From an uncultured archaeon (GTDB lineage: Archaea > Asgardarchaeota > Lokiarchaeia > Sigyniarchaeales > Promethearchaeaceae), in assembly GCA_964426185.1 (NCBI GenBank), contig CAYRPF010000056.1, positions 1-13,263 on the forward strand: a DNA stretch of 13,263 nt. The letters are read 5' to 3'. The notes under the pieces were generated by a model. The model saw only the letters and a list, made by a program, of their open reading frames with translations. It did no database searches and had not been told where the DNA came from. Positions 463-8,924 of the stretch are shown piece after piece. The stretch's first letter is position 1; every line of letters begins with the position of its first letter. The position numbers and the translations under genes were made by a program.

Positions 463-1476
463 ATGGCGACCTTATTATCCAATTTCATCACATTTCTGAT
501 TTTCTGTGTAGCTCTTTTTTTAATCTATCGGATTCTCTTATTATTACTAAAGCGAATTGACAAAAGAACGCCCGGCACAGAAACGTCTATTAAAGTGATT
601 CGATTATTACTAAGGTTCGGAGTAATTTTTGCCATCATTATCGGAATATTCACTATTTTCGATGTATCTTCCCCTTTATTCATTTCATTATCCTCGATTT
701 CTGGGATTATTATCGGGTTTGCTTCCACGGAGATTGTGACCCAGGTAATTGCTGGATTGTATTTAATTACATCTCGACCTTTTACCGTTGATGATTTGGT
801 AAAAATTGATGATGTAGAAGGGCTGGTGATCGAAATTAATCTCAATCATACCGTAATTAAGCAATTTAACAATACACTTTGTTTGATTCCTAATAAGAAA
901 TTGCTGGAATCTCAAATTCTGAATTATACACTTAATATTAAAGATGAATTAGAATATTCTCAATCAATAGTTGAGCCAAATTCTATCCATTCTGAATCTA
1001 AATCTGAATCTGAATCTGAATCTGAATCTACATCCGAATCCAAATCCGAATCTAAATCTGAATCAACATCCGAATCCAAATCCGAATCTAAATCTGAATC
1101 AACATCCGAATCCGAATCTAAATCTGAATCTACATCCGAATCCGAATCCGAATTTAAATTTTTTACCAAAAAAAAAATGGTCGATTTTCTGGGCAATATC
1201 ACCGACCTGATTACTGAAGAAAAAGTTACTCAATATGTTTTCGAAATTGAAGTGGAATTTGATTTTGATCCACAAGAGATATTTGCCAAGATAGATCGGG
1301 TATGCACTCAATTTGAGCCCAAATATTTCTTAAAACCAAAGTTCAAAATTGTTGGGTTCGGATATCGAGCAAAAATTCGGTTTTGGGTTTTTGCTAAGCG
1401 GTCTTCTACAATTATAGAAATGCAAAAAGATTTCATCCAAGCCATTGCACAAGAATTGTATGGAGGTTCTAAATAA
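463..1476 (+). CDS. Small-conductance mechanosensitive channel (MscS family) with an internal Ser/Glu low-complexity insertion
   Basis: Three hydrophobic N-terminal segments; [60 protein letters not shown] matches the MscS TM3 and beta-domain signature. Confidence 0.9.
991..1152 (+). repeat. In-frame tandem hexamer repeat (TCN-GAA/AAA/ACA) x27 with higher-order 36-bp units
   Basis: 27 units encode SE x17, SK x6 and ST x4. Two identical 36-bp copies, TCCGAATCCAAATCCGAATCTAAATCTGAATCAACA, lie at 1033-1068 and 1069-1104, followed by a 30-bp variant at 1105-1134. Confidence 0.97.
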
Positions 1477-2495
1477 TGACGAGCATAGCAGAAATATGGG
1501 AAAAAATTGAAGATTTTCTCTCAAGTGGCATGATTATCACGATTTTTAATTGGAGTATTCCATTATATACAATAATTGCTTTGGTTTTGGGGATAATAGG
1601 GCTAATTCTGATTTTTCAATTGCTCAAACGATTACTTTATCGTTTAGCGAAAAACAGCGCATTTCCAGCAGAAATCTATAATGGGCTATTATTTCTATTC
1701 CGATTGTTATTCGGAATCCTTTTAATCTGGTTAATTCTAAAACTGCTTGATATTGAGTCCGATTACTTATTGGTTATATCAGGGATAGTTGGAACCGCTA
1801 TAGCTTTTGCGTCTGTGAAAACCATCAATAATTTTATAGCAGGATTATGGATTGCGCTCAGTACTCCCTATTTATATGGGGATTATGTAAAAATTGACAA
1901 TGTGGAAGGATTAGTGGTGAAAATTACCTCTTTCTACACTCGGATTAAAACCTATCGGGAAAATACCATTTTGATCCCTAATCTTTCTTGTATCAATTCT
2001 AATATCGTCAATTACTCGATAAATATCACCTCCATTAGAAATAAGATTGAAATGTTAAAGAAACAAATAGAAAATTTACAGAAGAATAAAAATAAGAAAC
2101 TGAAGAGTAGTAATATGCTCAGAATTGCTCAATTTCAAGATGAAATCAACGAGAAAGAATTGATCTTAAAAAATATAGAGGATTTTAGATCAAATTTAAT
2201 GAATCGGAAAACTTCAGTGTCATTATCAAGCTTTGTTCAAGTCGATAAAGTGATTAGGTATATTTTTACACTCCAATTGCAAAAGAAGCTTAAATATGTA
2301 GAACAGAAATTACGCAGGTTACAGGAAGAATGGTATCACAAATATCATTTTCATGTGGATGTGAATTTAATAGATATAAGGTCCCACTTTATCTATGAAT
2401 TTACGCTTACGACTTTAGATCCCGTAGATATACTCAAATTTTATCCCGATTTGGTAAATGATGTATATAAAACAATATATAAAAAATCAAATTGA
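1476..2495 (+). CDS. Small-conductance mechanosensitive channel (MscS family) with a basic coiled-coil-like insertion
   Basis: Three TM segments; GTAIAFASVKTINNFIAGLWIALSTPYLYGDYVKIDNVEGLVVKITSFYTRIKT..IPN..S.IVNYS. The start overlaps the previous stop (TAATG, 1474-1478). Confidence 0.9.
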   Translation: MTSIAEIWEKIEDFLSSGMIITIFNWSIPLYTIIALVLGIIGLILIFQLLKRLLYRLAKNSAFPAEIYNGLLFLFRLLFGILLIWLILKLLDIESDYLLVISGIVGTAIAFASVKTINNFIAGLWIALSTPYLYGDYVKIDNVEGLVVKITSFYTRIKTYRENTILIPNLSCINSNIVNYSINITSIRNKIEMLKKQIENLQKNKNKKLKSSNMLRIAQFQDEINEKELILKNIEDFRSNLMNRKTSVSLSSFVQVDKVIRYIFTLQLQKKLKYVEQKLRRLQEEWYHKYHFHVDVNLIDIRSHFIYEFTLTTLDPVDILKFYPDLVNDVYKTIYKKSN

Positions 2496-3836
2496 AGACC
2501 TTTTTTTAAGATCGACGGGTGAATTGCTGTAATATATGCTGTTTGACGGAACATTCTCCCGCACTACCGTGTTACTTCCCACATGTGCATAGGCCCCAAT
2601 GGTTTTTCCAGGCATGATGCTGACTTGAATCCCAAGTTGGGCATGATCCCCAATAATGGTTCCTAATTTTCGTCTGCCGGTGTTTACGCGTTGTCCTTTG
2701 ACTTTCATGGATATGGATTTCTTATCTAACCTTAAGTTAGCGGTAATTGAGCCACATCCGAAGTTAACATGCTCCCCGATGATGCTATCCCCGACATAAG
2801 ATAAATGAGGAATGGCTGAATGATTCATGATAATGGAACTCTTCACCTCAGATCCATTTCCTACCTTGCAAAAGTCTCCTAAAGTGGTATACGGTCGAAG
2901 ATAAGCATTCGGTCCAATCACACAATTTTCTCCAATTATTATAGGTCCCTCTAGATAACTACCCGATTTAATTACAGAATTTTTACCGAGTTTAACGGTA
3001 CCATGGATGTTTACAAAAGGCTCCACTGTACCTCCTTCATTTATTAAGTTGGAGGCAGGGAGATTTGATTTGGTGGTGGGTTCTCCTGGAAGTTGTTCTA
3101 AAAAATAATGTGTGGCTTCTAAAAATTGCCATGGATGGCCAACATCACTCCAAAAATATTCAGAAACATCCAAAACATGGAATTTATCACCAGCTTTAAC
3201 TCGAGCAGCGATAGCATCCGTTAATTCATATTCACCCCTAGGTGATTTTTCAATAGTACTTAATGCATCGAAAATGGTGGGCGCAAGCACATAAACCCCT
3301 GCATTTGCTAAATTCCCGAATCTGTCATCCGGAGGCTTTTCCACCATTTTTTGTAAGATATAATGCTCATCTACTTTCATAATTCCCCATTTGGTGGGAT
3401 CGGGCATAGATTTTGCTGCTATGATACCATGATATTGTTCTTTAGTGAAATCGCGCTTTATTAGGTAATAAATTTGTGGGTCCATGAACAGATCTCCATA
3501 GATAAGCATAAAAGGCTCATTTTTGGCGAAATTTTTAGCTAATTGGGCAGCATGACCCGTTCCTAAGAATTCTTTTTGATCGATATAAGTAATAGAAAGC
3601 CCCATTGAATCACCCTTCCCATAATAATTCTCAATTTGCTCTTTTTTATAACCAACTATGAGTAAAACTTCTTCAATACCAATTTTTTTTACTGCTTCCA
3701 AAGTATGGGTTAAAATCGGCCTTCCTCCGATGGGAATGAGGGGTTTGGGGCGGGTATCGGTTAATGGGGTAAGGCGTTTGCCAAATCCCGCTGCTAGAAT
3801 CACAGCTTTTTGTAAAATGGGGGGTGAATTATTCAT
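2487..3836 (-). CDS. glmU: Archaeal-type bifunctional sugar-1-phosphate nucleotidylyltransferase / acetyltransferase (GlmU-like)
   Basis: N-terminal AVILAAGFGKRLTPLTDTRPKPL, Q.E.LGTGHA and EKP motifs. C-terminal left-handed beta-helix hexapeptide repeats with GPNAYLRP, HLSYVGDSIIG, NFGCGSITANLRLD and TGRRKLG, typical of archaeal GlmU. Confidence 0.9.
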   Translation of the reverse strand: MNNSPPILQKAVILAAGFGKRLTPLTDTRPKPLIPIGGRPILTHTLEAVKKIGIEEVLLIVGYKKEQIENYYGKGDSMGLSITYIDQKEFLGTGHAAQLAKNFAKNEPFMLIYGDLFMDPQIYYLIKRDFTKEQYHGIIAAKSMPDPTKWGIMKVDEHYILQKMVEKPPDDRFGNLANAGVYVLAPTIFDALSTIEKSPRGEYELTDAIAARVKAGDKFHVLDVSEYFWSDVGHPWQFLEATHYFLEQLPGEPTTKSNLPASNLINEGGTVEPFVNIHGTVKLGKNSVIKSGSYLEGPIIIGENCVIGPNAYLRPYTTLGDFCKVGNGSEVKSSIIMNHSAIPHLSYVGDSIIGEHVNFGCGSITANLRLDKKSISMKVKGQRVNTGRRKLGTIIGDHAQLGIQVSIMPGKTIGAYAHVGSNTVVRENVPSNSIYYSNSPVDLKKRSSI

Positions 3837-7314: not shown

Positions 7315-8340
7315 TTACCACCGATTTTCAGCATATTCTGCGTGGCCGAAAAATTTATCTTCCTTAGAAATCTCAATTTTTTCTCCATTATCAAGCACCA
7401 GGGTTCCAGTAAAATATCCATAGGCCTTTAAGACTTTCATCCGTAAAATAGCAAAGTTATTATCATCAACCATTACAAAGGTTGGATGAAGATGCATTTG
7501 GACCCGGTCATCGTTACTTTCGAAGATCCAGTCATCTTCAACATTATATGGATTCCAATAGTATTTTACTTCATCCAAATGATGCCCCTTATGATTGAAA
7601 AAGATCATATTCTTGCTGGATTCAAGACCGAAACCGTAATCAAAATTAAGACCCAATAGATTTCCTTGAACTTCACCTGAAGCAGAAGCCCATCTCCATG
7701 TAGTTTTATAAGGAAAAACTGCCCTAGTCCAATCTAAACATCCATAACTTTTTAGTTCATCTGAAAATGTGTATTCTTTATCTGCTACCTTAAATGTTCC
7801 AAAAGCTTGCATACAATTTGCCTTTTGGGCATAAACAAAATGTTTTGGGTTAGAAAAAGGAATAACATTGACCATCGAATCCATATCTGGTGGGCACATT
7901 AGTTTAATTTCACCTTGAAATCCTTTACCTCCAAAATAATCGGGAAAATTGAATTTAAATTGACGATGATCTTTATGTTTAACGCATTCCCAAGACGAAT
8001 TCTTAATTTGATAACGAATATCGCCCGCATTGCTGGATGGGGGTAAATTTAGTTTTCCTTTCGAAAACCATTCTACTTCACTGGCCTCGGAGGTTTCGTG
8101 ACGTTCAAAATCTAAAAAAGTAGCTTGAATTTTACCTTGATAGCCTACATCATAAATAACTAAAATGAGACCAAATTTATCATTTCTAATTTCGTAATAA
8201 TCCCATTCCTTAATTCGGAGTGCCGATGCATGAACTCGGCTTCGTTCATATTTTAAAAGGAGATCACGCGCCCATCCAGTTTGAACTAGATGGCCTTTAT
8301 CATTTAAAAGAGGTCCTGGAGAAGTAATTTCTGATTGCAT
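7315..8340 (-). CDS. DUF2804 family protein
   Basis: Motifs G.LL...G.L...GWAR, RIKEWDYY and DWTRAVFPYKTTWRWAS, and an HAEYAENRW C-terminus, match what I recognise as DUF2804. Confidence 0.8.
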   Translation of the reverse strand: MQSEITSPGPLLNDKGHLVQTGWARDLLLKYERSRVHASALRIKEWDYYEIRNDKFGLILVIYDVGYQGKIQATFLDFERHETSEASEVEWFSKGKLNLPPSSNAGDIRYQIKNSSWECVKHKDHRQFKFNFPDYFGGKGFQGEIKLMCPPDMDSMVNVIPFSNPKHFVYAQKANCMQAFGTFKVADKEYTFSDELKSYGCLDWTRAVFPYKTTWRWASASGEVQGNLLGLNFDYGFGLESSKNMIFFNHKGHHLDEVKYYWNPYNVEDDWIFESNDDRVQMHLHPTFVMVDDNNFAILRMKVLKAYGYFTGTLVLDNGEKIEISKEDKFFGHAEYAENRW

Positions 8341-8393: not shown

Positions 8394-8924
8394 TTATGAA
8401 TAAGGTTCAGCAAAAATATCTGCCCAAGGAAGATGGAAGGTAAAAATCGTAAATTCCAGAATCAAAATGAGCATTAAAAGCATAATTACTAATTGGGATG
8501 ATCGATTCCACTCAATTTCTTTTATTTGATTTTCAAAAACCGTGATAATGAAAATTGTGAGTATAGTACAGCTAATTGCCCATAATATTTCAACCCACAC
8601 CCTACCAATTGGTCCGTAAATAGCTGGCGCAATATACCACAAAATAAATATTATCCAAGGCGTTAATATCGCCCCAAAAAGGTGAGTAAAAACAAATTGC
8701 CGTTTATGGAAAAGTGTTTTATAAAAAATACCGAATTCTATGGCAGATAACAATAAATAACTGTAAAATGCAATTTTCCAATGTTGAAAAACAGATTCAT
8801 TTATCCCACTAAAGATCTGCATAACAATATTTGGAAAGAAATCGTACAAATAATGTAAAATTTCGAAAATTAAAAGAAATCCAAAAATTCTAGATAAATA
8901 ATAAGCTGTGGAATAGGGTTTCAT
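8394..8924 (-). CDS. Integral membrane protein, DUF6512-like
   Basis: About 5 TM segments; LHYLYDF and NESVFQHWKIAF resemble the H..Y and NESVWEH.K motifs of DUF6512. Confidence 0.65.
   Translation of the reverse strand: MKPYSTAYYLSRIFGFLLIFEILHYLYDFFPNIVMQIFSGINESVFQHWKIAFYSYLLLSAIEFGIFYKTLFHKRQFVFTHLFGAILTPWIIFILWYIAPAIYGPIGRVWVEILWAISCTILTIFIITVFENQIKEIEWNRSSQLVIMLLMLILILEFTIFTFHLPWADIFAEPYS

Follow-up and report, generated by a model that had tools for sequence, protein, structure and literature searches.

Whether two overlapping MscS-type genes of an uncultured Lokiarchaeia archaeon encode two mechanosensitive channels or two subunits of a single one is the question raised by the locus described here. 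The locus lies near one end of the stretch of DNA that was analysed (13,263 nt, referred to as the window). In an earlier note on this DNA the genes had been read as a coupled unit, with oppositely charged insertions at the same site and a possible co-assembly of the two products. The analysis carried out to follow up this reading relied on the gene layout, the distribution of the pair in related genomes, the predicted folds of the proteins and the composition of the insertions.

A conserved, translationally coupled gene pair

The two genes are designated A and B. The genes and the signals around them are located as follows.

402–449, + strand: AT-rich, TATA-like stretch 5′ of A, putative promoter shared by both genes (sequence reading)
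463–1476, + strand: gene A (P0001, 337 aa), open reading frame for the upstream-type MscS subunit
1462–1466, + strand: GGAGG, Shine-Dalgarno-like motif for B within the last codons of A, 9 nt 5′ of the ATG
1474–1478, + strand: TAATG overlap of the A stop and the B start
1476–2495, + strand: gene B (P0002, 339 aa), open reading frame for the downstream-type MscS subunit

The stop codon of A (TAA, 1474–1476) and the start codon of B (ATG, 1476–1478) have one base in common, giving the TAATG that had been claimed earlier. The claim that A and B make up a coupled unit is backed by this overlap, by the GGAGG motif and by conservation of the pair in relatives. In most of the ortholog pairs the gap at the junction is −1 to +3 nt, and GGAGG or GGAGGG was found 4–10 nt 5′ of the called B start at 10 of 15 junctions in the ortholog set. 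The AT-rich stretch upstream of A may serve as the archaeal promoter for both genes. The host genome (3.26 Mb in 155 contigs, 92% complete) was searched as a whole; A and B are its only PF00924 genes, and no match to MscL was obtained in the same 92% complete assembly.

On the − strand, a convergent gene (2487–3836) codes for a nucleotidyl transferase resembling GlmU, in which a hexapeptide-repeat domain is present (PF00483, PF00132); its 3′ end and that of B overlap by 9 nt. At 3–221 on the + strand, the window edge cuts into a gene for a MazF/PemK-type toxin (PF02452, E 4e-17), of which the C-terminal part is left. Further away are a DUF2804 gene (7315–8340, − strand; E 4e-97), a DUF6512 gene (8394–8924, − strand) and a gene in which DUF1028 is fused to a putative peptidoglycan-binding domain, PF08823 (8999–9907, + strand), the latter being odd in an archaeon.

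Conservation of the pair and of its inserts was followed in 41 related genomes and then in 161 genomes of the class. The A-then-B arrangement was found in 18 of the 161 genomes. Its carriers include nine of the 13 further members of the window's family and the two cultured Lokiarchaea encountered, Promethearchaeum syntrophicum MK-D1 and Candidatus Lokiarchaeum ossiferum B35. Among relatives of the same order, 33 adjacent same-strand MscS pairs were counted at about 38 loci. The earlier note had held that orthologs occurring singly or lacking the inserts would speak against it; at every complete type-1 locus examined, A precedes B and the inserts are present. The occurrence of the orthologs as A-then-B pairs with inserts fits co-assembly.

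In a maximum-likelihood tree of 71 proteins, six clades were obtained, corresponding to three pair types, each split into upstream and downstream members. SH-aLRT support was 94 for the clade of the window A, 99 for that of the window B and 100 for the other four. The upstream and downstream labels required 3 and 2 changes on the tree, against about 23 when they were shuffled, and the partner clades show mirrored sub-clade structure. The backbone of the tree is without resolution and is compatible with one ancient duplication as well as with three separate ones. In the multi-pair genomes G006 and G017, one member of the pair is found in each partner sub-clade; pairs have thus been duplicated whole and partners never exchanged. 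A seventh clade from the same genomes holds a canonical MscS without insert and with an E. coli-like C-terminal tail, which is always a single gene.

Within the set of relatives, a second family of coupled MscS pairs was noted in genomes of family f3 (L017, L020, L022, L027–L035, L037–L041, L043), with up to four pairs per genome. In its upstream members, an EGFE-like sequence replaces the RPF motif after TM3, and TF replaces FA in the pore helix.

Absence of the pair was also joint. PF00924 gave zero matches in two genomes of the same genus, G001 (one 4.4-Mb contig, 93% complete) and G002 (87% complete), which are close relatives apparently living without any MscS-type channel. No clear full-length A or B orphan was seen, the exceptions being contig ends and a single genome, G022 (Promethearchaeota PPR_0005, 63% complete), in which a full-length B lies beside a truncated A. 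This truncated A is a 141-aa ORF (L072:2037-2462) comprising the insert and the alpha/beta domain only, and it overlaps the B start; the space upstream of it is filled by an unrelated 492-aa gene. It could be a soluble cage-domain partner, a product of decay or a misassembly. Taken together, A and B are a conserved translationally coupled pair whose members share their inheritance, their duplications and their losses. Gene adjacency by itself would also yield mirrored trees and joint duplication or loss.

The MscS fold, the kink residue and the inserts

Both proteins were matched by PF00924 (MS_channel_2nd, the MscS beta domain; curated cut-off 20.2 bits), A with 64.7 bits (E 8e-18) and B with 59.4 bits (E 4e-16). 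In HMMER searches, chains of solved MscS, YnaI, MscK and MSL1 matched A and B, the matches covering TM1 through the beta domain. A and B are 42% identical to each other, and this identity is confined to the TM3 pore helix and the beta domain. The domains and residues dealt with in this section are the following.

733–930, + strand: beta domain of A, residues 91–156, with PN(X)9N (Pfam, whole-genome matches, translation)
1225–1461, + strand: alpha/beta (ferredoxin-like) cage domain of A, residues 255–333 (AF2, structural alignment)
2247–2480, + strand: alpha/beta cage domain of B, residues 258–335 (AF2, structural alignment)
730–732, + strand: codon of Glu90 in A, aligned to E. coli MscS G113 at the TM3a/TM3b kink (alignments)
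1818–1820, + strand: codon of Lys115 in B, aligned to E. coli MscS G113 (alignments)
931–1224, + strand: insert of A, residues 157–254 (alignments), disordered in AF2 save short flanking helices
2019–2249, + strand: insert of B, residues 182–258 (alignments), in AF2 an antiparallel helical hairpin with helices 184–203 and 210–243
991–1159, + strand: in-frame tandem repeat encoding the Ser/Glu/Lys/Thr tract of A (TRF), species-specific

A is composed of three TM helices, the beta domain, the insert and the alpha/beta domain, without a C-terminal beta-barrel strand. The AF2 model of B (mean pLDDT 82) has three TM helices, the beta domain, the hairpin and the alpha/beta domain; that of A (mean pLDDT 66) has the same core. 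Against E. coli MscS, the B model gave a Foldseek E-value of 3.5e-12 and a VIA Z of 13.6 with 236 residues aligned, and the A model a Z of 14.4 with 235 aligned residues. Since both models cover residues 24–265 of E. coli MscS and leave about 80–95 of their own residues unaligned, the inserts are extra to the fold, and A and B end before the barrel strand. That strand (E. coli residues about 271–280) is absent from A and B in sequence as well as structural alignments; the barrel characterises the E. coli type and is no defining feature of the MscS family. The cage domain, modelled by AF2 in both proteins as strand-helix-strand-strand-helix, went undetected by Pfam in A and B and was seen only through AF2 and structural alignment.

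The PN(X)9N motif described for the MscS family (PMC3386975) is present in both proteins, as read from the translations, the version in B being PNLSCINSNIVN. In a 21-sequence alignment that included E. coli MscS (reference sequence from NC_000913.3), the TM3 columns of A110, G121 and P129 are invariant. At the gate positions, L105 is replaced by Ile in A and Thr in B, and L109 by Phe in both. The window pair and its orthologs keep TM3, the Phe at L109, G121, P129, PN(X)9N and the cage domain in both members. In the models, A and B look like pore-forming subunits with the full MscS fold. They are members of the MscS family, in a coupled two-subunit, barrel-less and insert-bearing variant.

The glycine hinge at position 113 is absent from both proteins, its place being taken by Glu in A and Lys in B, with G121 kept. 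Within the window's family, Glu was found at this column in 11 of 11 family-f1 A orthologs and Lys in every B-type protein. In a sister sub-clade of family f3, the A member has Gln and the B member Asn. A scan of metagenomes for further independent co-switches brought up pairs in these same two states, all being Glu/Lys or Gln/Asn, and one event remains. The co-change at the kink is a single coordinated evolutionary change and is for this reason only suggestive. Substitutions of G113 in E. coli MscS alter inactivation, so adaptation in the channels of the window pair is probably unlike that of MscS.

When A and B were aligned with E. coli MscS and their orthologs, both inserts fell exactly between the beta and the alpha/beta domains. 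Each begins directly past I.NY(T/S), with which the beta domain closes, and the canonical sequence resumes in the first alpha/beta strand (VIRYIFTLQL in B). The earlier reading of two insertions at the same site, rejoining homologous sequence, was therefore borne out. In AF2, residues 160–252 of A have pLDDT below 50, and the B insert has mean values of about 62–91 over 10-residue blocks. Insert length varies among relatives. A-type orthologs are 295–300 aa long with inserts of 37–62 aa. The B insert is 75–86 aa in most relatives, 138 aa in G003 and 232 aa in G008. The B-type orthologs of the last two genomes (L025:1480-2670 and L026:995-2482, respectively) carry long hairpin inserts rich in Lys and Glu, and this expansion is suggestive of a coiled-coil stalk of variable length. 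The conserved elements are the point of insertion, the short helices flanking the A insert, and the B hairpin. The junction from beta to alpha/beta domain is an insertion hot spot in Asgard MscS. The inserts would lie outside the cytoplasmic cage, that of A as a mostly disordered linker and that of B as a hairpin of variable length.

In composition, insert 1 (nt 928–1218) has 97 aa with 21 E, 3 D, 11 K and 30 S and a net charge of −13; a hand count of its Ser-rich tract agrees with the 17 E against 6 K reported before. Insert 2 (nt 2016–2243; 76 aa) has a net charge of +7, and its first half is strongly basic as had been described (+8, against −1 in the second half). The Ser/Glu tract of A is encoded by a tandem repeat with periods of 6 bp and 36 bp, the 36-bp unit being present in 4.4 copies (TRF). 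It is absent from the closest orthologs, P0015–P0018 (42–60% identical). The tract is an ordinary repeat expansion, recent and in frame, which has inflated the A linker in one species. P0014 (293 aa, 100% identical) was considered as an allele with a shorter repeat and was discarded; it is an N-terminally truncated copy with the repeat unchanged. Two further observations concern such sequences. A run of ten adenines (1168–1177), 9 nt past the repeat end at 1159 within gene A, is a potential slippage site. In the host genome, a 776-aa ORF (G000:C68:16410-16592) has a Ser/Glu-rich tract 40% identical to the A repeat, and Ser/Glu low-complexity tracts recur in this genome.

Net charges were compared in the 15 orthologous pairs from which both inserts were extracted. 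They range from −13 to +11 in A and from −6 to +17 in B; the −13 is that of the window and is found nowhere else. Individual pairs combine A +10 with B 0, A +7 with B +6, or A −4 with B +9. No consistent opposition is seen in these pairs, so opposite charge is not a conserved feature and complementarity as a conserved rule is ruled out. The apparent complementarity with B results from the Ser/Glu repeat of the window species and lies outside the conserved design. One explanation of the locus has the acidic A insert and the basic B insert pair electrostatically, forming a cytoplasmic sensor or tether and driving co-assembly. The charges in the window and the shared structural site of the inserts agree with it; a species-specific repeat as the source of the acidic tract, the absence of consistent opposition in ortholog pairs and the predicted disorder of the A insert speak against it. 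We regard this explanation as quite improbable, and as a general rule the mechanism is unlikely. The coupled unit and the same-site insertions of the earlier interpretation thus stand, and opposite charge as the organising principle does not.

One channel or two

The explanation which we prefer is that A and B form, in Lokiarchaeia (Promethearchaeota), a conserved translationally coupled two-gene operon encoding two anciently diverged MscS-type subunits that would act together. The most likely arrangement would be a single tension-gated channel with both kinds of subunit in its pore ring. That the two proteins work together, most probably as one heteromeric channel, is given an about even chance. 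A heteromer is suggested by the coupling, the co-inheritance and co-loss of the genes, the single-gene state of homologues outside the class, the kink residue and the pore-forming competence of both proteins. Against it stand the geometry of a seven-membered ring, in which two kinds of subunit could not take strict turns, the listing of all solved matches with a single sequence, the single-event origin of the kink change and the G022 locus. A complex prediction with A residues 66–337 and B residues 90–339, based on separate alignments, scored 0.02 against a mark of 0.32 and is counted neither for binding nor against it. A fuller proposal is that Lokiarchaeia have an obligately heteromeric MscS with A and B in a defined order, a putative Glu/Lys contact at the pore-mouth kink that would help to keep them joined and an extendable coiled-coil hairpin of B outside the cage, and that the coupled pair has diversified into at least three pair families; this is put forward tentatively, at somewhat less than an even chance. 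If true, prokaryotes would have their first heteromeric MscS channel, and the stoichiometry of its ring, a 4:3 heptamer or an even-numbered ring, would come into question.

The main rival is that A and B form two separate homoheptameric channels of differing threshold, conductance or selectivity, co-expressed from one operon and staying together merely through adjacency and the usefulness of each. Several MscS paralogs are likewise retained in E. coli. Each solved MscS-family match is listed as seven chains per entry with a single sequence, every core pore element is kept in both A and B, and adjacency suffices to account for mirrored trees, all of which agree with separate channels. It is harder to reconcile with them that only one orphan, the B beside a truncated A in G022, was seen among more than 30 pairs with orthologs down to about 30% identity, that whole pairs were duplicated repeatedly, that A and B are jointly missing from two genomes of the same genus, and that outside the class the closest relatives occur as single genes. 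A Glu or a Lys at the kink would also make rings of like charge in homomers. Two separate channels are considered a real possibility, if a lesser one. An accessory or regulatory role of one member, with the hairpin-bearing cage of B capping or modulating an A channel, or with A acting via a soluble C-terminal part, can draw on the 141-aa A of G022, in which the insert, the alpha/beta domain and the overlap with the B start are kept, on the range of B insert length from 75 to 232 aa, and on the upstream member of the second pair type, which is without the conserved RPF motif. Against such a role, the window pair and its orthologs keep all the core pore and cage elements in both proteins, and G022 is a single case from a genome that is 63% complete; we consider it very unlikely.

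Comparison with known systems

E. coli MscS (YggB; PDB 2OAU, 6RLD, 7ONJ and others) resembles A and B in its three TM helices, in a TM3 with A110, G121 and P129, in the PN(X)9N beta domain and in the alpha/beta cage domain. It is a homoheptameric channel of small conductance encoded by one gene, whereas A and B are distinct subunits encoded by two coupled genes. Unlike E. coli MscS, A and B each bear an insertion of 75–98 aa between the beta and alpha/beta domains, have no barrel strand, and have Glu/Lys at G113, Ile/Thr at L105 and Phe at L109.

The nearest homologues outside the class, from Thor-, Heimdall-, Jord- and Bathyarchaeota, belong with A and B to the same barrel-less archaeal MscS subfamily; they have in common the YRY.F with which the alpha/beta domain begins, and the place of insertion. 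In contrast to the paired A and B, they stand singly, as judged from flanks of 2.5 kb. By eye, the insert is nearly lacking in Bathyarchaeota, about 25–35 aa in Thor- and Heimdallarchaeota and about 55 aa in Jordarchaeota.

A coupled two-subunit MscS present across the class would provide a clean system in which heteromeric assembly of this family can be tested, and the A/B pair would reveal what use is made of an insertion hot spot on the cytoplasmic cage. Such a channel would also be of relevance to the cell biology of Asgard archaea, wall-less cells bearing membrane protrusions. Literature searches for heteromeric MscS channels in prokaryotes or Asgard archaea found none, the only pertinent work returned being that on plant MSL proteins; no structure of a heteromeric MSL was found in these searches.

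In Arabidopsis, MSL9/MSL10 and MSL2/MSL3 are, like A and B, paralogous MscS-family subunits which have been proposed to mix. For MSL9/MSL10, a heteromer was proposed from electrophysiology cited in PMC3386975. MSL2 and MSL3 interacted in split-ubiquitin assays, in which MSL3 was without self-interaction (PMC6508831). The plant MSL proteins are eukaryotic, much larger and encoded by unlinked genes, whereas the case for A and B is one of operon coupling and co-inheritance in an archaeon.
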